Shown in pieces: positions 937-62,628 of a stretch of 64,000 bases of DNA. The stretch covers positions 17,956 to 81,955 of the forward strand of contig CAIRFN010000005.1 in the NCBI GenBank assembly GCA_903877885.1, read 5' to 3'. Position numbers and translations under genes: made by a program. The notes below the pieces were generated by a model, which was given only the letters and a program-made list of their open reading frames with translations, was not told where the DNA came from and made no database searches. Numbering within the stretch: position 1 is the first letter of the stretch; every line of letters begins with the position of its first letter. This DNA comes from an uncultured Candidatus Berkelbacteria bacterium. GTDB lineage: Bacteria > Patescibacteriota > UBA1384 > UBA12157.

Positions 937-2706
937 TTAGACTTCGATTATAACTGGAATAATCATTGGACGGCGTTCAGTTTCGGTAAATAAGAACTCA
1001 CCTAATTCCTGACGCATCGCTTTCTTAATATATTCCCAGTTAGCTGGATATTTTTCATTGTGTTTAGCAAAACCTTTTTTAATTTCCTGGCGAGCTTTGT
1101 AAACCAAGTCTTCGCGCTCGCGCATATAAATAAAACCGCGGGAAATAATATCAGGGCTGGTGACTAATTTGCCAGTTTCATGATCGACAGTCAAAATCAC
1201 CACGAAAATTCCGTCTTTGGCCATGGCTTGTCGATCACGTAAAACAATATTTCCGACATCGCCAACACCAAGACCATCGACTAGGACGTAAGAAGCATCA
1301 ACTTTTTGATGCGAGATACGCGCGCCTTTTTCATCAATTTCAATCACCGCACCATCTTCAATCACAAAAGTATTTGCTTCAGGAATACCTAATTCTTGAG
1401 CCAAACGAGCGTGTAAAACCAAATGTCTATATTCACCATGAATTGGCAAAAAATATTCAGGTTTAACGTTAGCAATCACAAGCTTTAATTCTTCGCGCTT
1501 GGCATGACCTGAAGAGTGAACTTTTTCGCGTTCCGAACCATAGAAGACATTGGCGCCCAAACGATACAAGTTATTGACCGTATCGTGATAGGTGCGTTCG
1601 TTTCCCGGAATAGCGCCGGCCGAAACCACGACCGTATCGCCTTTTTTAATTTTAATTTGTTTGTGTTCCCCTGTACTCATGCGAACCAAGGCCGAATATT
1701 CTTCGCCTTGGCTACCGGTACAGATAATGACCAGTTGATTGTCGGGAATTTTATCAGCCGAACGAAGGTCAGTCAAAATGCCTTTTGGCACTTTCAAATA
1801 TCCCAAGTTCATGGCAATATCAATCGCTTTTTCCATGCTACGACCCGCTACCGCCACCTTACGATGATGTTTTTGGGCCGAGTTGATTACGCCTTGAATA
1901 CGATCAAGTGCTGAGGCAAACGAAGTCACAATCATTCGGCCTTTGGCTTTACCAAAAATGCCGGCAATCGTGTCGTGAACCACGCTTTCCGCAATCGGAT
2001 TAGATTTAATTTCAACGTTAGTTGATTCGAGTAATAATAATTTAACACCGCGAGCGGCAAATTCACCCAGTTTAGAAAGAATCTTTTGCGATTCCAACTT
2101 GTTTGGATCGAGTTTAAAGTCGGCAATGTGGACAATTAAACCTTCCGGCGTGTCGATCACTAAACCGACATCGTCCAAGAAAGAGTGAGAAAATGGGATT
2201 AATTCAATCTTAAAAACACCGAGTTGGATTTTGTCGCCAGCTTTAACCACCCGAATTTGAGGTTTGAGTTCAGCTTCAGCCATTTTGCTTTCAATAAAAC
2301 CAGCGGTTAATTTTGTCGCGTAAAGCGGACATTGTAATTTTGGCCAGATGTAACTGATAGCGCCAATATGGTCTTCGTGACCATGAGTAAAAATCATCCC
2401 GCGGATTTTGCTTTTTCTTTCTTCAAGATAAGCCACGTTTGGAATGATTAAATCGATACCGAGCATTTCGGCGCGCGGAAACATAACACCACAGTCAACG
2501 ATAATAATATCATCGCCGTATTCATAAACCTGCATGTTTTTACCAATTTCGCCATTACCACCCATTGGGATGATTTTGAGCTTTTTGGCTTCTGGCGCCT
2601 TGTACGTTTGAATTGGTTTGGCAGCGTTCGATTGTTGTGGTTGCGTGTAGATTGGTCGTAGATTTGGATTTGTCCCAAAAGTTTTGGGATTTTGATTGTA
2701 ATTCAT
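937..2706 (-). CDS. rnj: Ribonuclease J (metallo-beta-lactamase/beta-CASP RNase)
   Basis: 589 aa. Metallo-beta-lactamase motif THGHEDHIGA. The N-terminal region MGGNGEIGKNMQVYEYGDDIIIVDCGVMFP is typical of RNase J. Confidence 0.9.
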   Translation of the reverse strand: MNYNQNPKTFGTNPNLRPIYTQPQQSNAAKPIQTYKAPEAKKLKIIPMGGNGEIGKNMQVYEYGDDIIIVDCGVMFPRAEMLGIDLIIPNVAYLEERKSKIRGMIFTHGHEDHIGAISYIWPKLQCPLYATKLTAGFIESKMAEAELKPQIRVVKAGDKIQLGVFKIELIPFSHSFLDDVGLVIDTPEGLIVHIADFKLDPNKLESQKILSKLGEFAARGVKLLLLESTNVEIKSNPIAESVVHDTIAGIFGKAKGRMIVTSFASALDRIQGVINSAQKHHRKVAVAGRSMEKAIDIAMNLGYLKVPKGILTDLRSADKIPDNQLVIICTGSQGEEYSALVRMSTGEHKQIKIKKGDTVVVSAGAIPGNERTYHDTVNNLYRLGANVFYGSEREKVHSSGHAKREELKLVIANVKPEYFLPIHGEYRHLVLHARLAQELGIPEANTFVIEDGAVIEIDEKGARISHQKVDASYVLVDGLGVGDVGNIVLRDRQAMAKDGIFVVILTVDHETGKLVTSPDIISRGFIYMREREDLVYKARQEIKKGFAKHNEKYPANWEYIKKAMRQELGEFLFTETERRPMIIPVIIEV

Positions 2707-3285: not shown

Positions 3286-3455
3286 TTACAACTTTCTTGA
3301 GAACGTTAATATAGTTCAAAAAATAAAATTGATACTTCCAAGAGTCCTGCCCCGTGACGACGCACTATCATAATACGATGTAATCGATTTGATAGTAAGG
3401 AGTTCTACGGGGTCTTTTTAATCTGATGTAGCCCTACTATACCACGAATATGGCA

Positions 3456-11344: not shown

Positions 11345-11372
11345 AAAATAGTATCTGGTGTACAGAGTAACA

Positions 11373-11408
11373 AAGGACAGTCCTTAAACGCGTAAAAGGA
11401 CTGTCCTT
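11373..11408. repeat. REP-like palindromic element (aaggacagtcctt arms), copy 1
   Basis: aaggacagtcctt-aaacgcgtaa-aaggactgtcctt followed by tttt. Located between the convergent genes lepB and 11469..12995. Confidence 0.8.
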
Positions 11409-11468
11409 TTAAATTATAGATCGCCACGGTCTGCTGACCTCGCGATGACAATTTTTTTAGATCTATCT

Positions 11469-12995
11469 TTATTCTACTGTCGGGTCGTGGGATTTATCCA
11501 AACTAGTACCAACATATGTAATGAGTGGGAAAAGTTCTTCAGTAAAGGCTTCCAAAGTTACCACGGCGCTATCTGATTCATACCAATCCGGTTTGGCGAA
11601 ATTAGTTTCTTTAAATCTGTTAGCCCAAGTAATTTCATCGCCAAAAACAATAGCATAAGGCAAATATTTGTTAAACACGTCCTCTAAAGTCGCGCCGGCC
11701 TCAATCCGTTTATTCATCGTCAAATATTGCTTAAATTGCAACCATTGTCGCAGTGCCACTGAACCGGTCACACTGCGGACTGGCATCAACCCGGAAATAC
11801 TGATAATTACCCAAGAAGCGGCCATTTGACCGATCCAAAAAAATAAAACATATTTTGGATCCGGTCCATAAAAAGCGGTGTAGAAAAAACCGACCAAACT
11901 CAAGAAAAAAGCGACTACGCCAGTATTGCGCCAATAAGTATGAATCACCGCCGGATTTTGAACAAAATAACCATTTTTGGTCGCTTCATTATAGATATTC
12001 AAATAAACCTCGGCAATCTTGCGCGAAAAAATATGACGGCCAATTCTCATCTGAACATCCTCGCCCGTACTCTTATACATTTGCGGCATAAAAATTTTAC
12101 TAAGTAAAATCCGCTCAAATTCGTGTAATTGGGGCGAATGCTCCAAATCCAGGCTTTTTCGCTTACCAAAGGAAAAAGTGCCATCTTGATGGCGATTGAT
12201 AAATAAAAAGTTTCGACAAGCCAAATCAATCAAAGTGGCGGCGATTTCCCGAGAACCAACCCGGCCGTCCATCAGAGCGCCAACCACCGCCGGCGACATA
12301 CCGCTTGGCGGAACATTGACAATTTTTTTACTGATGTAAAAATATTGATCTTGACGGCGACGAATAATCATCCCGATTAAAATAATCCAGGTTAGCGCCG
12401 GAAAACCAATCGCAAAAATCAAGTAAGATTTAGTGGGAATTTGAGCTAAGAAAAAAATTAATTGCTTGAGCGGCGGCGGCGTTAAAATAGTTTTTGGTAG
12501 ATCGGCCACCACCGTATAAGAAGCGCTTTGATCAATGTTATCAGCCACAAAAACCAGGGTTCGGCTATCGGCTAAATATTCTCTATGCGATTCAATCCCA
12601 TGAACCGCGTAAACCCGTTGCGTAACCTGATCGGCAGTCACATCTTCAGGTAGATGCATCGTCACCGTAAAGTTGCTTAAAAACGAACCAGGACTATCGA
12701 GAGCTAAAATACTAATTTCATATGCATTTGGCAGAATTTTTAAATCATTGGATAGACTTTTCTTCTCGGTTAAAACCTGGCCATTAGAGGTTACGATCAC
12801 ATCCAGATTTTGCGGAGTCGCCGCCTGTTCAGCCGTCAATTTCACAAATTCGTTCGAAGCGCTGGTTTTACTCTGATTTTGCCAAATGGCGTAACCGCCA
12901 CCGACGGTGATTGCTAAAATTAAAAATACAAAAAACTTCCGCCAATAAATATTGGTATTGCGTAATAATAATTGGACTAATTCAAAATTAGTCAT
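11469..12995 (-). CDS. Membrane protein, DUF2207-like architecture (N-terminal TM, large extracytoplasmic domain, C-terminal TM cluster)
   Basis: The start is trimmed to the ATG at 12995 (MTNFELVQLLL..), which has a GGAGGGG RBS. The track extends to 13118. Confidence 0.5.
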   Translation of the reverse strand: MTNFELVQLLLRNTNIYWRKFFVFLILAITVGGGYAIWQNQSKTSASNEFVKLTAEQAATPQNLDVIVTSNGQVLTEKKSLSNDLKILPNAYEISILALDSPGSFLSNFTVTMHLPEDVTADQVTQRVYAVHGIESHREYLADSRTLVFVADNIDQSASYTVVADLPKTILTPPPLKQLIFFLAQIPTKSYLIFAIGFPALTWIILIGMIIRRRQDQYFYISKKIVNVPPSGMSPAVVGALMDGRVGSREIAATLIDLACRNFLFINRHQDGTFSFGKRKSLDLEHSPQLHEFERILLSKIFMPQMYKSTGEDVQMRIGRHIFSRKIAEVYLNIYNEATKNGYFVQNPAVIHTYWRNTGVVAFFLSLVGFFYTAFYGPDPKYVLFFWIGQMAASWVIISISGLMPVRSVTGSVALRQWLQFKQYLTMNKRIEAGATLEDVFNKYLPYAIVFGDEITWANRFKETNFAKPDWYESDSAVVTLEAFTEELFPLITYVGTSLDKSHDPTVE

Positions 12996-13145
12996 TGATT
13001 CCCCTCCGCTCATCCATGACCTATGGATATTATGTAGTTGAGCGCCCTCCGAATCTACACTGTCAGTAGAGGACGAAGCCCCTTTGACAGTAAAGATGTA
13101 GGATGGGCTATTTACCATTATAACAAAATTTCTAACTTTAAGCGA

Positions 13146-14177
13146 TTAACTCGCTAATTTAAGAACTAATAAGTCGAGGGCCACTTTTGGCTCAACCTGA
13201 CCGGTTTTCATCGCCAAATCGTTTTCCATTAATTCATGGTAGATTTTTTTCAGTTCTATCATATTGTAATTCTTAATTAAATTTAGGCTTTTACCGGCCA
13301 CAAACGGATGCAATCCAGCCCGTTTCGACAGCTCCCACTGCGAATTTACTCCGCGCTCGGCAAAATCCATCGTAATTAACAGGTTCCGATATTGATAAAC
13401 AATCATCGACAAAATATAGAGTTCATTTTCGCCATTATCTAAAAGTCGGTGTAATTCGTATAATGATTTTTTGACGTTTCGACTAGCGACCGCGTCAACC
13501 AGAGCAAAAATATCGCTGGAAGTTTGCGGTTTAACCAAGAGTTCGATATTTTGAACTGTAATAATATTGTCATCCTCGAGCCGGTGTGAGTCTTTATCGA
13601 ACACCGACATCGGGGATCCAGATCCCGGATCCTGAAGCCTTCCGGTCCGGGATGACAGACCTTTAAAAGTTGCAAGTTTGGCAATTTCATTTCCTAACCG
13701 CCACAAATCGGCGCCAACATATTCAAATAATTTTTGAACACCATCAGATGTAATCGTACCATTTAATTTAGCAACTTCTTCGCGAATCCAGGTTTTTGCA
13801 CCTTGTTCATCAAGCGGTTTAAATTCTTGGGTTTTTTGTTTAGCTAATTTTTTGTAAAGCGATGTCCGTTTATCTGGCACGCCTGCTTCAGCAAAAACCA
13901 AAACGGTTGTTTCCGGGACTTTCGGCAAAAATTCGCCGATTTTTTCTTGTTCATCCTTTTTTCCTTCTAACAACAAATTTTCAATAATCACCAGCCGACT
14001 TTTGGCTAAAAATGGATAGGCCAAAATCTGCCGAATCATAAAATCGGCTTTAGTCGTCTTGCCGTCAATCACCGCTAAATTTGTGTCCCCTAAAGACGCG
14101 GAAATATACTTTTCCTTCATCTCTTTAATTTTTTGTTTTAGTCTGTAAGTATCCTCGCCAAAAAGAAATAATATCAT
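13146..14177 (-). CDS. holA: DNA polymerase III delta subunit-like (HolA)
   Basis: 343 aa. N-terminus MILFLFGEDTYRLKQKIKEMKEKY and overall delta-subunit layout. It carries an in-frame family-A element at 13568-13657. Confidence 0.65.
   Translation of the reverse strand: MILFLFGEDTYRLKQKIKEMKEKYISASLGDTNLAVIDGKTTKADFMIRQILAYPFLAKSRLVIIENLLLEGKKDEQEKIGEFLPKVPETTVLVFAEAGVPDKRTSLYKKLAKQKTQEFKPLDEQGAKTWIREEVAKLNGTITSDGVQKLFEYVGADLWRLGNEIAKLATFKGLSSRTGRLQDPGSGSPMSVFDKDSHRLEDDNIITVQNIELLVKPQTSSDIFALVDAVASRNVKKSLYELHRLLDNGENELYILSMIVYQYRNLLITMDFAERGVNSQWELSKRAGLHPFVAGKSLNLIKNYNMIELKKIYHELMENDLAMKTGQVEPKVALDLLVLKLAS
13568..13657. repeat. Family-A MITE-like palindromic element (tgtcatcctcgag...gggatgaca) inserted in frame in holA
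   Basis: Termini tgtcatcctcgagccgg.. and ..ccggtccgggatgaca. Translated through as ..RLQDPGSGSPMSVFDKDSHRLEDDN.. Confidence 0.8.
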
Positions 14178-15637: not shown

Positions 15638-15691
15638 CCAACACGCGGTGGCCTCCACCGCTTTTTAAATTCTGGCAATCTTCTAACAAAT

Positions 15692-15727
15692 AAGGACAGT
15701 CCTTCAGCGCGTTAAAGGACTGTCCTT
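15692..15727. repeat. REP-like palindromic element, copy 2
   Basis: aaggacagtcctt-cagcgcgtta-aaggactgtcctt followed by ttt. Located just after the fabH-like gene. Confidence 0.8.
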
Positions 15728-15735
15728 TTATTCTT

Positions 15736-15826
15736 TGTCATCCTCGAGCCGGAGGGTACTCCGACATCAAGGATCCAGAAAATTCCTGGATCCCAGATCC
15801 TGAAGCCTTCCAATCTGGGATGACAT
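15736..15826. repeat. Family-A MITE-like element, intergenic copy
   Basis: tgtcatcctcgagccggagggtactccgacatcaaggatccag + aaaattc + ctggatcccagatcctgaagccttccaatctgggatgaca. Confidence 0.8.
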
Positions 15827-21888: not shown

Positions 21889-24039
21889 ATGCAAGAATTA
21901 CCATCAAATTACAATTATAAAGAAACTGAAGACAAAATTTATGCGCTGTGGGAAGAAGCCGGCGCGTTTAAACCAGTTATTGATCCTAATCAAAAACCAT
22001 ATACGATTGTGATTCCGCCACCAAATGTGACTGGTTCTCTTCATATGGGTCATGCTTTAAATAACACAATTCAAGATATTTTAATTCGTCGCTCTCGGAT
22101 GCGTGGCGTGCCAACTCTATGGATTCCCGGAACTGATCATGCCGGTATTGCTACTCAAAATGTGGTGGAAAAAAAGTTGGCTAAAGAAGGCAAAACTCGT
22201 CAAGAACTTGGGCGCGAAGAGTTCACCAAAGAAGTTTGGGATTGGGTTGATCAATATGGCAACACTATTATTGGACAGCTCAAGAAAATGGGTTGTTCTT
22301 GCGATTGGTCCAGACAGCGTTTTACCATGGATGAAGGCTATTCAGAAGCGGTTAAAGTCGCGTTCAAAAATTACTATGATAAGGGTTATATTTATCAAGG
22401 TGAACGAGTGATCAACTGGTGTACCCGTTGTCAAACTGCCTTATCTGATATCGAAGTCGAACATATTGATCAAAACGCTAAACTATATTTTTTTAAATAT
22501 GATAAAAATTTTCCGATCACCATTGCCACTACGCGACCAGAGACAAAGCTTGGCGATACAGGTGTAGCGGTCAATCCGAAAGACAAAAGATATCAGGATT
22601 ACATTGGTAAAACTTTCAAGGTTAATTTTTGCGGTGTCGACCGCGAGATTCGGGTTTTTGCTGACATTAGTATTGATATAACCTTTGGCACTGGCGCCGT
22701 CGGAGTCACTCCAGCGCATTCTTTGGTTGACTATGAAATGGCCGAAAAAAATGGCTTGGATATTATTAAAGTGATTGATCAATATGGGAAAATGACCAAA
22801 GAAGCGGGAACAGAATTTGAAGGTTTGAAAGCAACTGAAGCGCAAGCCAAAGTCATCGAAATGTTGGAAAAAGCTGGGCTGATGGAAAAAGTGGAAGAAA
22901 TCCAAAACGCGATCAGTGTGTGTTATCGCTGTAATCGACCGATTGAGCCTCAACCGTCAAAACAATGGTTTTTAAAGATGTCGGAATTAGCAAAACCAGC
23001 GATTGAAGCGGTTAAATCTGGTCAAATTAAATTCACACCAGACCGTTGGACCAAAGTTTATTTAGACTGGATGGAAAATTTGCGCGACTGGTGCATTTCT
23101 CGCCAAATCTGGTGGGGGCACACCATTCCAATTGAAGGCGAAACTGATGTTTTGGACACTTGGTTTTCGTCAGCCTTGTGGCCGTTTGCCACACTTGGTT
23201 GGCCCAATAAAACTGAAGACCTAAAATATTTTTATCCGACCACCACACTTTCCACTGCCCGCGATATTATTTATCTGTGGGTGGCACGAATGATTTTTTC
23301 AGGGCTTGAATTTACCAACGAAATTCCATTTTCACAGGTTTATATTCATCCAACGGTTTTCAATAAAGAAGGTAAACGCATGTCCAAATCTTTGGGCACC
23401 GGCGTCGATCCTTTGGAACTGATCGAGAAATACGGTGCCGATGCCACGCGATTTGGTCTTACCTATATTAATACCGGGATTCAAGATTTGAAATTTGACG
23501 AAGAAGCTATTGGTGCTGGCAAAAAATTTGCCAATAAGTTGTGGAATATCACCAGATTCATGTTGATGAGCATTTGTCATTCCGGTCCGGATGGCTCCGG
23601 AACCGGAATCCAGGAAAATGATAATCTGGATTCCAGATCAGGTTGCCAACCAGTCTGGAATGACAAGATGGAACCAAGAACTGAAGCCGATAAAATCATT
23701 CTTGAAAAACTTAATGCCGTTATTAAATCAACTGACAAAAATCTTGATGAATTTAAATTTGGCCAAGCGGCGCATGATTTGTATGATTTCGTCTGGCACG
23801 ATTTGGCCGACGTATATATAGAAGAAAGCAAAGTGACCGCGAACGGTCATCCCGAGCCGAAGTCCGGCGAGGGAACCCCTGATTTTTCAGTATTACTTTA
23901 TGTAATAGTAACTTCGATTAAACTTTTGCACCCGATTATGCCGTTTGTAACAGAAGAAATCTGGCAAAAACTCTACGAAGATAAATTAGTTGATGAAAGA
24001 ATGCTGATTACGGCAAAATGGCCAAAAGCACAAGAATAG
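21889..24039 (+). CDS. valS: Valyl-tRNA synthetase (compact form)
   Basis: PPPNVTGSLHMGHAL HIGH region, KMSKS (GKRMSKSLG) and anticodon-binding region. Carries an in-frame family-A element at 23575-23665. Confidence 0.9.
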   Translation: MQELPSNYNYKETEDKIYALWEEAGAFKPVIDPNQKPYTIVIPPPNVTGSLHMGHALNNTIQDILIRRSRMRGVPTLWIPGTDHAGIATQNVVEKKLAKEGKTRQELGREEFTKEVWDWVDQYGNTIIGQLKKMGCSCDWSRQRFTMDEGYSEAVKVAFKNYYDKGYIYQGERVINWCTRCQTALSDIEVEHIDQNAKLYFFKYDKNFPITIATTRPETKLGDTGVAVNPKDKRYQDYIGKTFKVNFCGVDREIRVFADISIDITFGTGAVGVTPAHSLVDYEMAEKNGLDIIKVIDQYGKMTKEAGTEFEGLKATEAQAKVIEMLEKAGLMEKVEEIQNAISVCYRCNRPIEPQPSKQWFLKMSELAKPAIEAVKSGQIKFTPDRWTKVYLDWMENLRDWCISRQIWWGHTIPIEGETDVLDTWFSSALWPFATLGWPNKTEDLKYFYPTTTLSTARDIIYLWVARMIFSGLEFTNEIPFSQVYIHPTVFNKEGKRMSKSLGTGVDPLELIEKYGADATRFGLTYINTGIQDLKFDEEAIGAGKKFANKLWNITRFMLMSICHSGPDGSGTGIQENDNLDSRSGCQPVWNDKMEPRTEADKIILEKLNAVIKSTDKNLDEFKFGQAAHDLYDFVWHDLADVYIEESKVTANGHPEPKSGEGTPDFSVLLYVIVTSIKLLHPIMPFVTEEIWQKLYEDKLVDERMLITAKWPKAQE
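23575..23665. repeat. Family-A MITE-like element in frame in valS
   Basis: tgtcattccggtccggatggctccggaaccggaatccag...ctggattccagatcaggttgccaaccagtctggaatgaca. Translated as ..CHSGPDGSGTGIQENDNLDSRSGCQPVWNDK.. Confidence 0.8.
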
Positions 24040-24074: not shown

Positions 24075-24451
24075 TGTCATTCCAGACCGGCCGGAGGCAG
24101 GATCTGGAATCCAGAATAAAATGAATAATTATTATGTGTATATTTTGACTAGCAGAAGAAACGGCACTTTATATATTGGCGTAACTAATGATCTGATTAA
24201 AAGAATATGGGAACATAAAAACCATAGTAAAAAAGGATTTACAGAAAAATATAACATTTGCCAATTGATATACTTTGAGCAAACTAATAATATAAACTCC
24301 GCTATTAATAGAGAAAAACAATTAAAATCATGGAATAGAAAATGGAAACTTGACTTAATTGAGAAAGTCAATCCTGATTGGAAAGATTTATATCAAGAAT
24401 TGTTGTAACTGGATTCCCGATGTCGGATGCCATCCGACTCGAGAATGACAA
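24075..24451 (+). mobile_element. Full-length family-A element carrying a GIY-YIG nuclease ORF between its two terminal modules
   Basis: Left module tgtcattccagaccggccggaggcaggatctggaatccag (24075-24114). ORF 24121-24408. Right module ctggattcccgatgtcggatgccatccgactcgagaatgaca (24410-24451). The short MITE copies (e.g. 38811-38904) are these two modules joined directly. Confidence 0.75.
24121..24408 (+). CDS. GIY-YIG nuclease family protein (UPF0213/YhbQ-like, about 95 aa)
   Basis: ..YYVYILTSRRNGTLYIGVTNDLIKRIWEHKN.. with the GIY...YIG motifs. The start is trimmed to the ATG at 24121. The track frame is open from 24061 through the left terminal module. Confidence 0.85.
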   Translation: MNNYYVYILTSRRNGTLYIGVTNDLIKRIWEHKNHSKKGFTEKYNICQLIYFEQTNNINSAINREKQLKSWNRKWKLDLIEKVNPDWKDLYQELL

Positions 24452-24514: not shown

Positions 24515-24982
24515 ATGTCTTTTACAAAACTCCTCATTATTCTATCTATCTTATTATTCGGTTTGAGCCTTTCGCTCGTGGTTTTTAAAGTTACCTATAA
24601 TAATCAGACGAAAGATATTAAGACTAAAAATCAACAAATTCTCGATCAATATAGTAATAATATTAAAACCGAAAATGATGCTTATAAATTAACTGTCGCT
24701 GGACTACATCAACTGGATGTGAATTTGCCGGATTTAGCTTTAATCAGTTTGAAACAAGCCACAGTTGCTAATCCCAGTTATCGCGATGGTTGGCTGGCAT
24801 TGGGGTCAGCTCAATTTGACACTGCGAATTTCAATAATGCTCTTATCTCTTTCCAAACCGCGGCCAAACTCGATCCAATTTTTCCTGAAACCTATCGTCT
24901 TCTCCAGATAACTTACAATAAACTCGGTCAAAATGACGCGTCTAAACTTGCGCAAACAAAATACGAATTGTTAGCAAAATAG
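24515..24982 (+). CDS. Membrane-anchored TPR-repeat protein
   Basis: N-terminal TM helix (LLIILSILLFGLSLSLVVF) followed by TPR-like repeats (..GWLALGSAQFDTANFNNALISFQTAAKLDP..). The ATG at 24515 is the likely start; the in-frame TTG at 24503 is an alternative. Confidence 0.5.
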   Translation: MSFTKLLIILSILLFGLSLSLVVFKVTYNNQTKDIKTKNQQILDQYSNNIKTENDAYKLTVAGLHQLDVNLPDLALISLKQATVANPSYRDGWLALGSAQFDTANFNNALISFQTAAKLDPIFPETYRLLQITYNKLGQNDASKLAQTKYELLAK

Positions 24983-25036
24983 TTTTTGTGTTATACTTTA
25001 TATATATTTCATAAATCATGGTAGGTCGGAGGGGCT

Positions 25037-27475
25037 ATGTTTAATAAATTCAAAAAGAACTTCATCAAGTTTATGATCGGCGTATTATTAGTAGTCTCTT
25101 TTATGCCGAATATTATTGACGCTCAAAAAACCGAATTTGATCGCTGGCAACAAAAAGTAGCTATTCAAAATAATCATTGGCAACAATTAAATGAGCAAGC
25201 TAAAGCAGTTGCTGAAAAATTACAATCAGCTGACAAAAATCCTCTAGGACTAGCCACAGCTAAAGCGGCTGGAAATTATCCAGTTAAAGGTCTTCGAGTA
25301 GCCTTAGACATTTTTGATCGATATACTAATGATGCTACCTATCGACCAAATTACTGGTGGGATTCAGCACCGCTTCCGACTGGTACAAATCTGGCCGATA
25401 TTCAATTTGATATCTCTCTAAGCGCTCCTAATTATAACCTTATTAATAGAACTCTTGTTAGTACTGCCAAAGGTTCTGATTTTCCTAATGACGACAATCT
25501 AAAATGTAATAATGCTGACAAAACCAATTGCGGTACCGTTATGGTCACGGTTAAAACAATGTTGAACCAAAATGGTAATCGAACAGAAATTGGTTCTTCC
25601 TTAGCTTCATTGGTAGTTCCGAATTTAAGCGATCGTGCAAGTAAATTGGCCGCTAGTGCTATTGATAATGATTATAATCCCGCAACATTAAGCACAAGCA
25701 GCACTAGTTCTATTGATAATTCTGACTATCCACCAGCGCCAGACGGTACTACCAGAATGACTGGTGAGCAATGTCAAAACGACCCGGTATGCAGTACTTT
25801 ACCAACATTTGGCGTGCTCGCAGAACCAACTGCTGTATGGGGTGATATAGCTCCAATTGGCATACTGGCATACAATGCTAAAAGTATTGCCAAAATTACT
25901 TTGAGCATTTCTGATCCAGTTTCCAATAAATCATTTTATAAAGACGATTTTACTAACGTTAAAAAACAGGATCAAATATATTATGAATATGATTGGGACA
26001 CTTTACTAGCTCAAACTAATGTCGATAGTGCTAATTCTACCCACACTGCTTTAGCCGAATTTTACAAAGATAATGGTAAAGGCGGTTTTACTTCTATCGG
26101 CCGAGCTACTGCTACGATTAAAATTACTGCTTTCAGTAGTTTCGATCCAATGACTGATGGTTTCTGGGGCGGCTATTTAAGAAATGATGGTAGCTATAGC
26201 CAAGATTGGAAAGTAAAACTTGGTTGTGATAAAAGTGCTGATCTTTGCAAAGATATCGATTCAACTAAAACTGCTATAAGTACAGCAATTGCTAGCGGTC
26301 AAGTTACAGAACAAGATGTTAATGATCTGATAAAAAGTTTCTCTCGTTATAATACCCAATTAAGCAAATCTAGTAGCGGAAACGATGAAACAATGATGCA
26401 GACTGTAGCTAATTGTTATAATATGACTGATTTAATTGGAGTAGTTAATGATCAGATGGATACCAAAGTTGGTATCCCTATTAGCGATATGGACGAAGCT
26501 TTCTTAAAATCACCTGAAAGTATTACTATCTTGCAAGTAGTTAACCAATATAGTTCACGGATTGCTTCTTATAATCCACAAACTCTTGATGAATGGAAAG
26601 CAATGCCTTTTTGGCCACAAATGAGTAATGAGATACTAAATAAGATTAGCCGCGATCCAGCCAATCTTATTAATTCTATTGACGATGTTACACCAGCAAG
26701 TTTAGACACTACGACAACCGCAAGCAACCACAATTCTTTTGCTCTTTTTATGAACCCAACTGGAGTCGCAAAAGCAACTGACCCAATAGGTTTCGTGACC
26801 GATGGCGCCTTCCTTATTGCAGATACAATTAAAATGTTTAGAGATCCAAGTATTGGAAATGCCGCCTGGATATTGGGCGATGTTGCGCTCGGGGCAGTAG
26901 ATGTTGTTCTTGGCGGTGGCGGCGAACTTCATGCCGCTATTGCTAGTGGTAAAGCTGCTATTTGGATGGCTACACATTTTCCGAAAGTAGTTGAAGTATA
27001 TAGAGTAACTAAGGGCGTAATTGCATCGGCTAAAATTGGCGAACGGGTTGGTGCATTTTTAACTAGGATCGGTGGTGGCGCAATTAAGGAAGCAATTATT
27101 AAAGGTGGTACAGCGGTCACTGAATATCTTGCAGCTCATCCAAATCTTGCTAAAATTGTCGATAGAATCAACCCTTTTAAAGCCAAATATTGGGCTTGGG
27201 CGCCAGGAATAGCTAAGAAATTTATCACCAAAGCCAAAGCTGCCGCTTGGTTTGTTTTTGATCATATTATTCCATTCGCCAACCTTGCTGCCCACGTTGC
27301 TGGAGATTCAGGTAAATGTGAATACTGCGCAGATGCAAAAAAGTGGTGGACATGGTTTACTCCAAGCGGAGCTATTCTAAACACCTTATGTGAGCTTCAA
27401 TGTGTAATTATCAACTGGATTGCCAGCGCGGTTGGCTTTGTTGTGGATAAGGTTTTACTACCAAGTATCCTTTAA
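25037..27475 (+). CDS. Large secreted/surface protein (812 aa) with a Gly/Ala-rich hydrophobic C-terminal region
   Basis: N-terminal signal/TM MIGVLLVVSFMPNIIDAQ. Long S/T/N-rich extracellular region. The C-terminal 250 aa are rich in G/A/I and amphipathic. No family recognised. Confidence 0.5.
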   Translation: MFNKFKKNFIKFMIGVLLVVSFMPNIIDAQKTEFDRWQQKVAIQNNHWQQLNEQAKAVAEKLQSADKNPLGLATAKAAGNYPVKGLRVALDIFDRYTNDATYRPNYWWDSAPLPTGTNLADIQFDISLSAPNYNLINRTLVSTAKGSDFPNDDNLKCNNADKTNCGTVMVTVKTMLNQNGNRTEIGSSLASLVVPNLSDRASKLAASAIDNDYNPATLSTSSTSSIDNSDYPPAPDGTTRMTGEQCQNDPVCSTLPTFGVLAEPTAVWGDIAPIGILAYNAKSIAKITLSISDPVSNKSFYKDDFTNVKKQDQIYYEYDWDTLLAQTNVDSANSTHTALAEFYKDNGKGGFTSIGRATATIKITAFSSFDPMTDGFWGGYLRNDGSYSQDWKVKLGCDKSADLCKDIDSTKTAISTAIASGQVTEQDVNDLIKSFSRYNTQLSKSSSGNDETMMQTVANCYNMTDLIGVVNDQMDTKVGIPISDMDEAFLKSPESITILQVVNQYSSRIASYNPQTLDEWKAMPFWPQMSNEILNKISRDPANLINSIDDVTPASLDTTTTASNHNSFALFMNPTGVAKATDPIGFVTDGAFLIADTIKMFRDPSIGNAAWILGDVALGAVDVVLGGGGELHAAIASGKAAIWMATHFPKVVEVYRVTKGVIASAKIGERVGAFLTRIGGGAIKEAIIKGGTAVTEYLAAHPNLAKIVDRINPFKAKYWAWAPGIAKKFITKAKAAAWFVFDHIIPFANLAAHVAGDSGKCEYCADAKKWWTWFTPSGAILNTLCELQCVIINWIASAVGFVVDKVLLPSIL

Positions 27476-37741: not shown

Positions 37742-37752
37742 ATACAGACCAA

Positions 37753-37788
37753 AAGGACAGTCCTTCAGCGCGTTAAAGGACTGTCCTT
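37753..37788. repeat. REP-like palindromic element, copy 3
   Basis: aaggacagtcctt-cagcgcgtta-aaggactgtcctt tt. It is followed by a ttgataccagatacc motif. Confidence 0.8.
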
Positions 37789-37839
37789 TTGGATAATCTG
37801 ACACTTGATACCAGATACCAAATGCTATATACTTGACCC

Positions 37840-45136: not shown

Positions 45137-45527
45137 TGTCATCCTCGAGCCGGTTTGAGCTTTGTCGAAAACCGACATCAAGGATCCATCAAAATAAAAA
45201 GCTATTTCGTTTACATTTTAGCCAGTCAGAAAAACGGAACATTATATATCGGTGTTACAAATGATATTATAAGAAGGATTTGGGAGCACAAAAATAAAGC
45301 TATTCAAGGTTTTACAGATAAATATAGAATTGATAAATTAGTTTATTTCGAAGAAACACCAGATATTAATTCAGCTATTAAGAGAGAAAAACAATTAAAA
45401 TTATGGAGCCGTTCCTGGAAAATAGATTTGATAGAAAAGAATAATCCTGATTGGAAAGATTTATATCAAGATTTGTTATAATGGATCCTTGATGTTGGAG
45501 CGCTTCGCTTCCAACTCGAGGATGACA
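45137..45527 (+). mobile_element. Second full-length family-A element carrying a GIY-YIG ORF between its terminal modules, inserted between atpA and atpG
   Basis: Left module tgtcatcctcgagccggtttgagctttgtcgaaaaccgacatcaaggatcca. ORF to 45481. Right module tggatccttgatgttggagcgcttcgcttccaactcgaggatgaca. Confidence 0.75.
45155..45481 (+). CDS. GIY-YIG nuclease family protein (second copy)
   Basis: ..YFVYILASQKNGTLYIGVTNDIIRRIWEHKN..REKQLKLWSRSWK.. The frame is open from a TTG inside the left terminal module. There is no ATG near the conserved N-terminus, so the start is uncertain. Confidence 0.75.
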   Translation: MSFVENRHQGSIKIKSYFVYILASQKNGTLYIGVTNDIIRRIWEHKNKAIQGFTDKYRIDKLVYFEETPDINSAIKREKQLKLWSRSWKIDLIEKNNPDWKDLYQDLL

Positions 45528-46025: not shown

Positions 46026-47066
46026 ATGCCAAGTACACAAGAATTTCGTAGAAGAATTAAATCGGTCAGTTCGACCAAACAGATTACCAAAGCAATGGAA
46101 ATGATTGCTTCTATTAAGATGCAAAAATCTGTCAAAACTATTGCCCAGGCTCGAGCCTATATCCAAAACGCATGGAATATTTTACATTTACTGTCTGAAA
46201 AAATATTAAGCGACGATCACGCGCTGATTAATCCTAAAGATCATGCCAAAAAAACAGCCGTGATTTTAATTACTTCTGACCGCGGTTTATGCGGTTCATA
46301 TAATTCAGAAGTGATCAAGAAGCTAACATCATTCAAAAATGTCATCCTCGAGACGGAGGGTACTCCGACATCAAGGATCCAGGACCTGGATTCCAGATCT
46401 GGTTCCCAACCAGTCTGGAATGACAATACGATTGATATCATTGCCATCGGTAAAGTCGGCGCCGCGTTTGTTAACAGATATAAAATCGGCAAACTGATCG
46501 CTGAATTTAAAGGTTTTGAAAATAATATTTCCGTTGAAGATGTCATTCCGATTTCCAAACTGACGAATGGTGAATATATGGCTGGAAATTATGACAAAGT
46601 GGTAGTGATTTATTCTCATTTCATTTCTTCGCTTAAACAAGTCCCGGTCGTCAAACAAATTTTGCCAATTGTCGAAGATCATATCGATCATCCGGAATTA
46701 TGGGAAGGAAATAATGTCATCCTCGAGCCGGAGGGTACTCCGACATCAAGGATCCAGGACCTGGATTCCCGATCCGGAGGCCATCCGGTCGAGAATGACA
46801 AAAACAATACTGAATACAAATTTGAACCCAATCCTGATGAAGTTTTTGATGGCGTCTTGCGACAAATTTTACGCACCCAAATTTTCGGTGCCATTTTAGA
46901 AGCCAACGCTTCTGAACATTCGGCCCGTATGGTGGCCATGAAAAATGCCACCGACAATGCCACCGATTTAGTTGATGAATTAAAATTAGTATATAACAGC
47001 ATCCGCCAAGGAAACATCACTTCGGAAATCGCCGAAATTAGTGGTGCCGCCGAGGCGATGAAATAA
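46026..47066 (+). CDS. atpG: F0F1 ATP synthase subunit gamma (lengthened by two in-frame MITE insertions)
   Basis: Conserved N-terminus (..RRRIKSVSSTKQITKAMEMIASIKMQK..) and C-terminus (..NSIRQGNITSEIAEISGAAEAM). At 346 aa it is longer than typical. Confidence 0.9.
   Translation: MPSTQEFRRRIKSVSSTKQITKAMEMIASIKMQKSVKTIAQARAYIQNAWNILHLLSEKILSDDHALINPKDHAKKTAVILITSDRGLCGSYNSEVIKKLTSFKNVILETEGTPTSRIQDLDSRSGSQPVWNDNTIDIIAIGKVGAAFVNRYKIGKLIAEFKGFENNISVEDVIPISKLTNGEYMAGNYDKVVVIYSHFISSLKQVPVVKQILPIVEDHIDHPELWEGNNVILEPEGTPTSRIQDLDSRSGGHPVENDKNNTEYKFEPNPDEVFDGVLRQILRTQIFGAILEANASEHSARMVAMKNATDNATDLVDELKLVYNSIRQGNITSEIAEISGAAEAMK
46340..46425. repeat. Family-A MITE-like element in frame in atpG (copy 1)
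   Basis: tgtcatcctcgagacggagggtactccgacatcaaggatccag gac ctggattccagatctggttcccaaccagtctggaatgaca. Translated as ..VILETEGTPTSRIQDLDSRSGSQPVWND.. Confidence 0.8.
46715..46800. repeat. Family-A MITE-like element in frame in atpG (copy 2)
   Basis: tgtcatcctcgagccggagggtactccgacatcaaggatccag gac ctggattcccgatccggaggccatccggtcgagaatgaca. Translated as ..VILEPEGTPTSRIQDLDSRSGGHPVEND.. Confidence 0.8.
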
Positions 47067-50335: not shown

Positions 50336-50401
50336 TAATAATTTATTTTATTGGCAGACAATTTGAGTTGTGATACAATGAAAACAGTATTTGGTATTTC
50401 A

Positions 50402-50516
50402 GCCCATCCTTCATCTTTACTGTGCAACCGACTCCGTCGTGTACGCACAGTGCAGATTGCGGAGGGCGACATCCTATCATATTTTTTAAATAAATGAGTG
50501 TCGGAGGGGTATAGTG
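50402..50516 (+). promoter_or_regulatory. Conserved ~115-nt 5' leader element, copy A, upstream of the T4SS-like operon
   Basis: About 80% identical to the reverse complement of 62448-62558. Both end in gtgtcggagggg, which is the SD, plus a start codon. It contains the cggagggcgaca / tgtcggagggg complementarity. Confidence 0.5.
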
Positions 50517-50552
50517 CAGTTTCAAGTACCACAAAATATGGTCAAGCTATAA
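50514..50552 (+). other. 12-codon decoy ORF (VQFQVPQNMVKL*) that duplicates the RBS and the first 8 codons of the gene at 50647
   Basis: ggaggggtataGTGcagtttcaagtaccacaaaat at 50503 matches ggaggggtataGTGcaatttcaagtaccgcaaaat at 50636. Confidence 0.45.
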
Positions 50553-50646
50553 CTATCATATTTTAAGGTAGCTTGCCGCGGAATTTTGCGGATAGCTAAA
50601 CGAAAATTTTTCCAAAAATATAGATTACTAATCACGGAGGGGTATA

Positions 50647-51150
50647 GTGCAATTTCAAGTACCGCAAAATATAGATCTCGAAGACAAGATTGTCGGGCCA
50701 TTGACCTTGACGCAGTTTTTGTATGTCTTAGGCGGCGGCCTTGTTGATTACATTATGTTTCAATCTTTTGCCGCTAATTATTTTGGGCTTTTTCTGGTTC
50801 TTGGTATCCCAGTCGCTTTACTTGCTTTAGGATTAGCTTTTTTTAAAGTCCAAGAACAGCCTTTGTCACATTTTATCACAGTTGGAATTTTATATTTATT
50901 TAAACCAAAAACTAGACTATGGAAAAGAGAAGAAAGCTATCCAACAGTTCTAACTGAACCAACAAAAAAAGAAAAAAAGGAAAATGAAAATGTGGCAATT
51001 CCAAAACATCATCTTGAAAAAAGTGAGCTGGAACAATTAGCCTACAAATTAGATACTTTTCAAGTAGATACGCCGGTTGAAGAAAAGAAAAAATTTGGCG
51101 CAGTTTCCGCCGCTTTCGAACAATTATTGAAGGAAGATAAAAAGAAGTAA
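50647..51150 (+). CDS. Small 2-TM protein, VirB3-like / PrgI-like component of Gram-positive-type T4SS (tentative)
   Basis: 167 aa. GTG start after GGAGGGG. Hydrophobic hairpin LYVLGGGLVDYIMF...LVLGIPVALLALGLAFF followed by a charged tail. First gene of the operon that contains VirB4. Confidence 0.45.
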   Translation: MQFQVPQNIDLEDKIVGPLTLTQFLYVLGGGLVDYIMFQSFAANYFGLFLVLGIPVALLALGLAFFKVQEQPLSHFITVGILYLFKPKTRLWKREESYPTVLTEPTKKEKKENENVAIPKHHLEKSELEQLAYKLDTFQVDTPVEEKKKFGAVSAAFEQLLKEDKKK

Positions 51151-51163
51151 CCAGGAGGGGATC

Positions 51164-57584: not shown

Positions 57585-57696
57585 CGAATTTCCTCCTAAG
57601 GATAAGTTGGTCATATTCTACATCATTAGACAATATTATTCAAGACATGATATGATAAAATTGAAAAATTATATTGATCTATTTTAGGAGGGGAAC

Positions 57697-61437: not shown

Positions 61438-61460
61438 AAAGTAGACGGTATCCGACAATA

Positions 61461-61495
61461 AAGGACTGTCCTTCAACGCGCTAAAGGACAGTCCT
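61461..61495. repeat. REP-like palindromic element, copy 5
   Basis: aaggactgtcctt-caacgcgcta-aaggacagtcctt tttt. Followed by atacttgatactaaatcctaaatactagatac. Confidence 0.8.
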
Positions 61496-61540
61496 TTTTA
61501 AATACTTGATACTAAATCCTAAATACTAGATACTAATTTT

Positions 61541-61813: not shown

Positions 61814-61823
61814 CTTTACCTAA

Positions 61824-61859
61824 AAGGACAGTCCTTCAGCGCGTTAAAGGACTGTCCTT
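61824..61859. repeat. REP-like palindromic element, copy 6
   Basis: aaggacagtcctt-cagcgcgtta-aaggactgtcctt t. Located between convergent genes. Confidence 0.8.
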
Positions 61860-61877
61860 TATTGTTTGTGATTTTTC

Positions 61878-62447
61878 TTAAAATATCTGCGGCAAATGCA
61901 TAAAGCTGGCAAAGATGTTCGGCAAAAACGAAACGAAATATAAAAATAACGAAATAAAAACACCGTAGAGCAAAACCCGAATTGACCAATTAAGGTAAAA
62001 CTTGCGCGGCACATTGGAATATTTGGTTAAATTATAGGTCTCTAAAATATAGGCATCATAAATTTTGTTCTCATTAGCCAAGGTATCCAAAACCTGTTTT
62101 TGATATTCGTCTTCGGATTTACCGCTGATTTGATGATGGTAAAACAGACTTTCACTCTGACCTTTTTTGGTCGCAAAATGACTTGGTTTCAAAGCCATTA
62201 AAGCAAAAAACATAGAAATAACTACAGATATTAAAGCAGCAATAAAAAATACGCTTTGAGCCCATTGGGCTTCAAAATTTGTGGCAAAAAAGACAATCAA
62301 AGCCGAGTTAAAACCAATCATAATATTGGTTCTTAAGTCCAACATATTGCGAATTTCAATCTGTTTATTTAAAATATCAGACACAAAAGTCACCCGCTCC
62401 AGAGCGCCCAATTCCCCATCCCATTTAATTTCTTCTTTAGTTTGCAT
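61878..62447 (-). CDS. Membrane protein (3 TM) with a cytoplasmic N-terminal domain. Function unknown
   Basis: Start trimmed to the ATG at 62447 after GGAGGGG. The track uses the GTG at 62462. Preceded by conserved leader copy B. Confidence 0.5.
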   Translation of the reverse strand: MQTKEEIKWDGELGALERVTFVSDILNKQIEIRNMLDLRTNIMIGFNSALIVFFATNFEAQWAQSVFFIAALISVVISMFFALMALKPSHFATKKGQSESLFYHHQISGKSEDEYQKQVLDTLANENKIYDAYILETYNLTKYSNVPRKFYLNWSIRVLLYGVFISLFLYFVSFLPNIFASFMHLPQIF

Positions 62448-62558
62448 CTTCCCCTCCGACACACATTAATTTAAAAATATGATAGTTTGTCGCCCTCCGA
62501 TACTCGCACTGTTCGTACACTACGAAGTAGGTTGAACAGTAAGAGTTTAGGATGGGCA
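62448..62558 (-). promoter_or_regulatory. Conserved ~115-nt 5' leader element, copy B
   Basis: The reverse complement aligns with 50402-50516 over gcccatcct...ttactgtNcaaccNactNcgtNgtgtacgNacagtgc...cggagggcgaca..ctatcatattttt..gtgtcggagggg. Confidence 0.5.
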
Positions 62559-62628
62559 AACAATAAAACACTTATTATATATTTATCATATCACAAACAT
62601 TTATCAAAACGTATTAGTTAAATTACTT

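Follow-up and report, generated by a model that had tools for sequence, protein, structure and literature searches.

A structured 5′ leader family with a paired decoy Shine-Dalgarno box in Candidatus Berkelbacteria

Introduction

Several kinds of bacterial 5′ leader are known to act in cis on translation or on the stability of messenger RNA (mRNA), and the element reported here is of this general kind. It lies upstream of prgI and of two further genes in a stretch of 64,000 nucleotides (hereafter, the window) from contig CAIRFN010000005.1 of an uncultured Candidatus Berkelbacteria bacterium (assembly GCA_903877885.1). What sets it apart is its unusual architecture, in which a decoy Shine-Dalgarno (SD) box accompanies the real one, together with signs of recent spread; the leader fits no named family that was tested. 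The features of known systems used in the following comparisons are general knowledge.

The STAB-SD of cryIIIA and the 5′ stem-loops of aprE and ermC resemble the leader in combining an unused SD-like GGAGG in the 5′ untranslated region (UTR) with a stable hairpin that would lie at or near the 5′ end. The STAB-SD and the other 5′ stabilisers also share with it a strong genuine SD and a host group that possesses RNase J. Unlike in STAB-SD, the extra SD-like box of the leader is not single-stranded but paired to an anti-SD-like strand and therefore cannot bind the 30S subunit in the ground state. Moreover, unlike STAB-SD and 5′ stabilisers, the leader constitutes a conserved multi-helix family found at many genes, several copies being intercistronic.

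The ROSE and fourU thermometers, the expression platforms of translational riboswitches and the tac/fbi/ucb exchange of hok all feature, as does the leader, a pyrimidine-rich strand complementary to the SD and competing partners, and all of these cis-acting anti-SD/SD elements are confined to the ~110 nt preceding the start codon. In the known systems, however, the SD itself is paired by default, whereas the leader pairs its decoy and leaves the real SD free. The leader further differs from them in that the swap of partners is 4-11 kcal/mol uphill and in that neither a ligand core nor a temperature-labile helix is evident.

Targets of CsrA/RsmA, such as B. subtilis hag, are similar to the leader in having a 5′ hairpin and two GGA sites, one of which overlaps the SD; they differ in that the upstream GGA box of the leader is located in a stem rather than in a loop, and no csrA was found in the sequence searched. 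Finally, the Correia elements of Neisseria, the enterobacterial ERIC/IRU sequences and the bcr1 repeats of Bacillus are, like the leader, hairpin repeats of ~100 nt that are present or absent at orthologous sites and are co-transcribed with a neighbouring gene. Unlike these repeats, the leader is strictly sense-oriented, delivers an SD at working distance, has no signature of terminal inverted repeats or target-site duplication, preserves its helices by compensatory change and has an ancient, conserved association with ftsL.

Almost nothing is known of post-transcriptional control in bacteria of the candidate phyla radiation (CPR), which cannot be grown alone. The leader family is specific to one CPR group and is tied to cell division through ftsL, to an apparatus resembling a type IV secretion system (T4SS) and to other envelope proteins that mediate the episymbiotic lifestyle. 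Its unusual architecture, a decoy SD locked by an anti-SD mimic beside the real SD, leads to directly testable predictions. Syntenic comparison, which shows the leader newly installed at several genes, provides, in our opinion, a rare view of a cis-regulatory RNA in the course of spreading.

Results

Members of the leader family

The initial annotation of the window had noted that the leader of prgI (copy A) resembles another leader encoded on the opposite strand (copy B), that both have the same orientation relative to their downstream genes, and that two unrelated operons thus share a leader. The similarity is real: a repeat finder aligns 50402-50493 (plus strand) with 62557-62466 (minus strand) over 92 nt without gaps at 79% identity, and both copies are upstream of their genes in the sense orientation. 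In a MAFFT alignment, the similarity spans GCCCATCC to GTGTCGGAGGGG and ends at the SD; the coding regions are unalignable, and the similarity thus does not reach into coding sequence. The genes are indeed unrelated, but the window contains three copies rather than two. The third, copy C (13108-13001, minus strand), was detected by a repeat search 5′ of a gene encoding a 508-aa DUF2207 membrane protein. A covariance model of the family, run over the 64-kb window with filters off, recovers these three copies only (102-105 bits, E ~1e-28), the next match scoring 14 bits. The match at 62488-62597 (plus strand) is copy B read in antisense, and that at 24942-25045 is an SD-like end; both, at 12-14 bits, are not copies.

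Homologues exist elsewhere. Three-box pattern searches, which required GCCCATCC, CGGAGGGCG and CGGAGG, returned 111 matches in GTDB species genomes; one of these, in a low-GC genome, is real (L105, Candidatus Berkelbacteria RIFOXYA2_FULL_43_10), and the remaining 110, in high-GC genomes, were treated as chance. Among metagenome contigs, 49 matches were found, 12 of them in low-GC loci. They yielded eight new low-GC family members (L112, L113, L126, L131, L132, L136, L152 and L153), in addition to one contig identical to copy A and two repeating L105. Pattern scans of viral contigs gave chance matches only. Thus, nine more distinct sequences come from one Berkelbacteria genome and from metagenomes. 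The window, too, is of Berkelbacteria origin, the best matches of its DUF2207 and VirB4-like proteins being named Candidatus Berkelbacteria. The covariance model assigns 79-116 bits to members and at most 14 bits to background. The leader is therefore a structured family of ~105 nt, so far seen only in Candidatus Berkelbacteria (Patescibacteria/CPR) and hitherto undescribed; full-text searches of the literature turned up no description of this kind of RNA from Berkelbacteria or other CPR bacteria.

Some sequences resemble the leader in part. L114 (GC 0.64) is not a member: the partner of its GCCCAUCC is an upstream GGAUGGGC, and it scores 12 bits with the model. L124 and L150 carry tandem 33-nt mini-hairpins beside a toxin-antitoxin-like cassette and are not leaders. 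In L124, an unrelated contig of ~50% GC, these units (GCCCATCCTTCGCTAAAAGCTACGGAGGGCGCA; 1247-1357 and 383-420, also in L150) border a small pair of toxin-antitoxin-like genes; every unit folds into a mini-hairpin whose P1 sequence is that of the leader (see below), and the leader model gives 32 bits, but the architecture is different.

Conserved fold and covariation

RNAalifold, applied to 12 sequences (copies A, B and C, L105 and the eight metagenome members), predicts 24 pairs, 15 of which show compensatory double changes. Helix P1 is formed by GCCC-A-UCC (5′-GCCCAUCC, with a bulged A) and an internal GGAGGGC box. P2, P3 and P4 make up one long, interrupted and variable hairpin, which is closed by P1. 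Helix P5 begins directly after P1, without a spacer, and its 3′ strand ends right before the SD, GGAGG(GG); its variants are GACA/UGUC, GCUCA/UGAGC, GCCACA/UGUGGC, GCUAC/GUAGC, GCAACA/UGUUGC and GAGCAC/GUGUCUC. Standard pairs occupy 93.2% of the alignment cells; sliding the 3′ partners by 1-3 columns lowers this share to 35-50%. The slid controls have covariation scores of 0.07-0.13, compared with 0.53 for the predicted fold, a value reached by none of 500 shuffles. The covariation is thus strong and applies to P2-P5. In 11 of the 12 members, the start codon is located 4-7 nt 3′ of GGAGG.

A conserved, structured 5′ leader at unrelated genes, as initially proposed, is borne out by the homologues and by the covariation. 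The proposal had named three observations that would speak against it, namely a lack of further homologues, similarity extending into coding sequence, and a lack of conserved structure or covariation; homologues exist, the similarity stops at the SD, and the covariation is strong. The pairing suggested at the time, between cggagggcgaca and tgtcggagggg, survives only in part, as CGACA/UGUCG, the 5-bp base of P5.

Accessibility of the two boxes

For 11 of the 12 members, the structure in which P1 engages the decoy box has the minimum free energy (MFE); for the twelfth, L105, it is no more than 0.2 kcal/mol above the MFE. In this conserved conformer, the genuine SD is outside all conserved helices, the opposite of what a thermometer or another SD-sequestering element would require. 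The internal box, conversely, has an unpaired probability of 0.00-0.01 in 10 of the 12 members, so that the accessibility expected of a STAB-SD is lacking; as in a STAB-SD, no ATG, GTG or TTG is found 2-10 nt downstream of the internal GGAGGG boxes at 50461, 62498 and 13050. Forcing the 5′ strand to pair with the SD costs 4.2-11.3 kcal/mol across members, and the two GGAGGG boxes, being the same sequence, cannot pair with each other. The idea that a helix sequesters the ribosome-binding site (RBS) thus does not hold: the SD is free, and the partner of the 5′ GCCCAUCC is the internal GGAGGGC box. The three-box dcw variants offer alternative partners that are close to isoenergetic. There, the 5′ strand can pair almost equally well with a distal GGAGGGGC box, and the MFE structure of L168 and the centroid of L105 pair GCCC with the distal GGGGC box.

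Comparison with known RNA classes

At gathering threshold, the only Rfam 15 match in the whole window is a SAM riboswitch (SAM-I, RF00162; 40317-40413, minus strand; 57.6 bits versus a gathering score of 44.4). When all 4227 families were searched with E up to 10, copy A gave noise only (miRNA and snoRNA models, at most 21 bits) and copy B gave nothing. The dcw-spacer version had no Rfam match.

The initial annotation had called the architecture riboswitch-like or attenuator-like. The latter description fails, as no terminator-like site occurs in or behind copies A, B and C, where P5 is followed by GGAGG and not by the U residues of a terminator hairpin. The former is not supported, given the lack of both a terminator and a conserved unpaired core: no unpaired nucleotides are conserved outside P1, Rfam yields no match, the genes downstream are of mixed function, and the inner hairpin of L168 measures just 13 nt. 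The invariant columns fall almost entirely within P1 and the SD boxes, which the search patterns fixed, and the two subtypes of the leader have no loop sequence in common.

Recent gains in the window and an old association with ftsL

The closest sequenced relative, GCA_964547745.1 (loci L177 and L161; VirB4 84% and DUF2207 63% identical to those of the window), is syntenic with the window across atp operon-prgI-VirB4...DciA-PycTM and across holA-DUF2207. The leader was not found at sites A, B and C of this assembly. Its promoters align with those of the window (the -10 region of copy A with that of the prgI promoter at L177:8540-8565) and are followed by short or AT-rich UTRs with the ordinary SDs GGAGGAGGG, AGAGGG and GAGGAGGG. 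Nor was the leader found at site C in the more distant L164 and L166, where the holA-DUF2207 spacer measures 15-21 nt. Because a syntenic relative does not have the leader at A, B and C, the window copies are lineage-specific recent gains. Judging from the aligned sequences, they were inserted between transcription start and start codon and brought their own SD.

A related hairpin without the boxes is found in the 5′ UTR of the udg-rnj operon (Table 1). Its inner part is like P3-P4 of copies A-C, its outer helix is CCCCGU/ACGGGG, and it contains no GGAGG box. It sits behind a TTGACA-17-TATAGT promoter and is missing at the same place in the relative (L161:18560-18640).

The only conserved gene association of the leader is that with ftsL, which, unlike the window copies, is old. 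L152 has the order rsmH-leader-ftsL-ftsI, and the module is present in the mraZ-ftsL spacer of L105 and of its 85% relative L168, which keeps P1, P5 and the boxes. Two further variants were found by synteny. L170 (FtsI 69% identical) is a clear homologue in which P1 is AUCCUCC/GGAGGAU, and L171 has a mini-hairpin CUCCCA/UGGGAG followed by GCG. These variants, which are independent of the search patterns, indicate that P1 changes in sequence yet its 3′ strand stays SD-like GGAGG. In L178 and L181, the hairpin is missing, and a purine cluster, CGGAGGAGGRCAAAGGAGGGGCAAAGG, is kept in a long outer helix more than 100 nt 5′ of the ftsL start (~125 nt in L178).

This spacer also contains a larger conserved non-coding RNA (L105:1270-1600; L168:9130-9430; L170:9240-9520; L171:9340-9510; L178:9395-9570; L181:9360-9590). 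It consists of an outer helix, e.g., CCAGCAGCCAA ... UGGCUGCUGG, around the CGGAGGAGGRCAAAGGAGGGGCAAAGG cluster and a CAAAAACAAAAA tract; it has no Rfam match, and rsmH is missing from the clusters that carry it. It could be a separate, undescribed RNA motif and is possibly the ancestral home of the leader module.

Duplication at copy A

Copy A had initially been described as followed by an exact duplication of the RBS and the first eight codons of prgI, which creates a 12-codon decoy open reading frame (ORF). The ORF is present, and the duplication is real but not exact: according to a repeat finder, 50502-50539 and 50635-50672 are identical at 36 of 38 positions. As both mismatches are synonymous, the eight codons (VQFQVPQN) are identical in the two copies. 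The layout, i.e., leader, SD and eight codons, 95-nt segment X, and then SD, eight codons and the rest of prgI, is the same in five independent assemblies. Segment X carries a P5-like hairpin remnant that has AACTATCATATTTT in common with the P5 loop of leader B, and the 38-nt duplication does not continue as a decayed gene copy. The arrangement looks like a rearrangement scar, fixed in the sampled strains, which recombination may have left when the leader was installed or replaced together with the prgI start. Since the ORF stops 95 nt ahead of the real prgI start, direct translational coupling is unlikely.

Downstream genes

The gene served by copy A, prgI (50647-51150, plus strand), is the first of a T4SS-like operon (VirB4-like, NlpC-P60), and copies B and C precede genes for a PycTM-like membrane protein and a DUF2207 protein. 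Outside the window, the downstream genes encode FtsL-like proteins (L152 and L105), a DUF4012 protein (L113), a DUF3048 protein (L126), a PsbP_2-like anchored protein (L132), an N-terminally anchored protein of 237 aa (L112), a small protein with several transmembrane segments (L136 and L153) and ribosome recycling factor (RRF; L131). Domain matches or visibly hydrophobic N-terminal segments indicate membrane or exported products for 10 of these 11 genes (L136 and L153 being counted once, and the sample being small). This share is far higher than the 20-30% expected of a bacterial proteome. The set is envelope-biased, without a single metabolic or transport theme and without ligand logic.

A stand-alone PycTM-like (Pycsar effector-type) protein is kept beside dciA in Berkelbacteria, in the window as well as at L177:18737-19309 and L166:20688-21197. 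No recognisable cyclase is found beside this gene in the Berkelbacteria loci, and the relative L164 (18846-19643) encodes an Apyc1-like (anti-Pycsar) protein of the metallo-beta-lactamase fold.

Table 1. Positions of leader copies, their parts and associated features in the window
Feature	Position	Strand	Remarks
Copy A, whole leader	50402-50509	+	5′ of prgI
Copy A, promoter-like site	50351-50379	+	TTGGCA-17-TACAAT with TG extension; 10/12 match
Copy A, P1 5′ strand	50402-50409	+	GCCCAUCC, anti-SD-like
Copy A, inner hairpin P2-P4	50410-50459	+	Variable; compensatory changes in 11/12 pairs of these helices
Copy A, internal decoy box	50460-50468	+	CGGAGGGCG; GGAGGGC is the P1 3′ strand; no start codon after it
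Copy A, hairpin P5	50468-50502	+	GACAU...GUGUC; AU-rich loop; abuts both GGAGG boxes; 4/5 pairs covary family-wide
Copy A, Shine-Dalgarno	50503-50509	+	GGAGGGG, serving GTG 50514
12-codon ORF	50514-50552	+	VQFQVPQNMVKL, then stop; GTG 50514 to TAA 50552; first 8 codons duplicate the prgI start
Segment X	50540-50634	+	95 nt between the duplicated SD and 8-codon blocks; identical in strain contigs L140, L172, L173, L176
Second SD and 8-codon block	50635-50672	+	Genuine prgI start; SD 50636-50642, GTG 50647; PrgI Pfam match from residue 4
Copy B, whole leader	62451-62557	-	105 bits; P1 5′ strand 62557-62550; decoy box 62499-62491; SD 62457-62451
Copy B, downstream gene	61878-62447	-	PycTM-like; ATG 62447 to 61878
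Copy C, whole leader	13001-13108	-	102.6 bits; P1 5′ strand 13108-13101; decoy box 13051-13043; SD 13007-13001
Copy C, downstream gene	11469-12995	-	DUF2207; ATG 12995 to 11469
Box-less related hairpin	3350-3412	-	CCCCGU...CUUACUAUCA...UGAUAGUG...ACGGGG; udg-rnj operon 5′ UTR; 10.4-bit partial match

Discussion

The structure and the distribution of the leader, as read from the sequences compared, are solid; the mechanism is a proposal. Our preferred reading, to which we assign a probability of roughly 0.4, is that the leader may control translation or mRNA stability in cis through a triad of anti-SD, decoy SD and SD, whose ground state would have a paired decoy and a free SD. The leader would thus work post-transcriptionally, on ribosome access, on mRNA lifetime or on both, by means of three matched boxes. 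In the ground state, the decoy would hold the anti-SD-like strand, and the real SD would be single-stranded beside a coaxial stack of P1 and P5, translation being ON. Freeing of the 5′ strand or capture of the decoy would either allow the 5′ strand to move to the real SD or expose a second ribosome-binding box. Such events might be triggered by the 30S subunit, by a protein or by a nuclease that cleaves the long hairpin. The genes served by the family are mainly those of the cell envelope, and in the lineage of the window the leader was copied recently into at least three further 5′ UTRs.

Several points weigh against this reading. The switch is suggested by the logic of the sequence, and the alternative state is 4-11 kcal/mol uphill in SD-type copies, so that without a factor acting in trans the element would always be ON. 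The search patterns demanded GCCCAUCC, CGGAGGGCG and CGGAGG, so that finding these boxes invariant in the 12-member alignment says nothing by itself. Three members have GGAGGU as the SD, which would pair poorly with the 5′ strand, and the terminal box of L105 and L168 has no start codon at SD distance. GGAGGGG also serves as the SD of leaderless genes in the window (25028-25034, 51154-51160 and 57687-57693); the extended run of G is therefore a general RBS feature of this organism and may reflect the 3′ tail of 16S rRNA. Finally, a dispensable or selfish insert would explain just as well why the leader is absent from orthologous sites of relatives.

A further proposal, which we consider unlikely, is that the leader is a self-spreading "plug-in" 5′ UTR. 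Equipped with its own RBS and a masked duplicate thereof, it would have spread in the sense orientation to the starts of envelope genes in one CPR lineage and imposed on them a shared three-box switch read by the ribosome or by another factor. If true, this would constitute a translational regulon of a new class and reveal a route, likewise new, by which regulons grow in reduced genomes; if the leader is only a stabiliser or a selfish hairpin, it represents a modest addition to the orphan RNA motifs.

The first alternative to the triad, somewhat improbable in our estimation, is that the leader is a constitutive cassette, an mRNA stabiliser and insulator that does not switch. The GC-rich P1-P4, at or near the 5′ end, would block 5′-end-dependent decay by RNase J, P5 would keep the SD open regardless of context, and intercistronic copies would, in addition, block 3′ exonucleases for the upstream cistron. 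The Gram-positive 5′ stabilisers of aprE and ermC and the ompA 5′ UTR of E. coli are parallels. Such a cassette agrees with the single-state MFE structures, with an SD outside helices in all members, with the freedom of the inner hairpin to vary, down to 13 nt in L168, and with the replacement of plain UTRs by the leader at three genes. RNase J and PNPase are encoded in the group (window 937-2706; L161). The predicted promoters are divided on the matter. The -10 boxes of copy C, L112 and L113 end 6-8 nt ahead of P1 (8 nt for the extended -10 box TGTTATAAT of copy C), so that these transcripts would begin with P1, but the -10 boxes of copies A and B, 16-22 nt upstream, would leave a single-stranded 5′ tail that known stabilisers do not tolerate. 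The leader copies other than these five are preceded by an upstream stop codon, and L113, L136, L152 and L153 are intercistronic, which is at odds with a 5′-end stabiliser. Moreover, a mere stabiliser accounts neither for the GGAGG-like 3′ strand of P1 in independent variants nor for a 5′ strand that mimics an anti-SD.

It is quite unlikely, in our view, that the repeated (C)GGAGG boxes form a site for a dimeric or global RNA-binding protein, CsrA-like in its action, whose binding to the SD-overlapping box would repress envelope genes. There are two or three near-identical GGA boxes 35-45 nt apart, one of which is the SD, and the gene set, mixed yet envelope-biased, would suit a regulon. The spacer RNAs of the dcw type point the same way, as their CGGAGGAGGRCAAAGGAGGGGCAAAGG boxes, at more than 100 nt from the ftsL start, cannot be plain SDs. 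However, the upstream GGAGG box of the leader is buried in a stable helix (unpaired probability at most 0.01 in 10 of the 12 members), whereas CsrA-type leaders present theirs in loops or single strands. No candidate protein emerged either: tblastn found no match to csrA, hfq or khpA in the window or the collected loci, which are a small part of any genome.

Similarly doubtful is a selfish or neutral hairpin repeat, akin to miniature inverted-repeat transposable elements (MITEs) or repetitive extragenic palindromes (REPs), that spread through 5′ UTRs and whose RNA fold is a by-product of propagation at the level of DNA or single-stranded DNA. The presence/absence pattern is that of such a repeat, the leader being missing at the A, B and C sites of GCA_964547745.1 and at site C of two further relatives. 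A fourth, related hairpin is inserted in the udg-rnj UTR, other palindromic repeat families are abundant in the window, and copy A bears a rearrangement scar. A selfish repeat, on the other hand, would hardly be expected to be so regular in its placement. The 13 copies of the SD or ftsL type, like the udg hairpin, are all in the sense orientation, between a promoter or upstream stop codon and a start codon (the orientation alone having a chance of ~1 in 4000 or less), and 11 of 12 members have their SD at working distance from the start codon. Apart from P1, no terminal inverted repeats were found, nor were a target-site duplication or a conserved 5′ flank. Copies of the same genome are ~20% divergent, yet all helices are kept by compensatory changes, and the ftsL association is kept across organisms with FtsI 69-85% identical to the L105 query.

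A small-molecule riboswitch, with P1-P4 as an aptamer whose ligand stabilises P1, has the general layout of translational riboswitches in its favour (a P1-closed multi-helix domain followed by an SD) but is very improbable, considering the lack of a match among the Rfam families, of conserved unpaired nucleotides in P2-P4, of a loop sequence common to the subtypes, of a metabolic theme downstream and of a competitor for the 3′ strand of P1 within the platform, in addition to a domain that is cut to a 13-nt insert in L168 and missing in L178 and L181.

Other repeats in the window

The window contains several families of palindromic repeats of 40-50 nt, e.g., AAAGGACAGTCCTT...AAGGACTGTCCTTT and TGTCATTCCAGA...TCTGGAATGACA, which are REP-like or terminator-like in appearance. 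Their sites include 11372-11417, 15691-15736, 37752-37797, 61460-61505 and 61823-61868, as well as 13618-13658, 23626-23666, 46386-46426 and others. Pairs of such repeats are located 375 nt apart, at 46335-46426 and 46710-46801, within an ORF-rich region. A direct repeat of 291 nt with 72% identity is found at 24118-24408 and 45191-45481, 21 kb apart.

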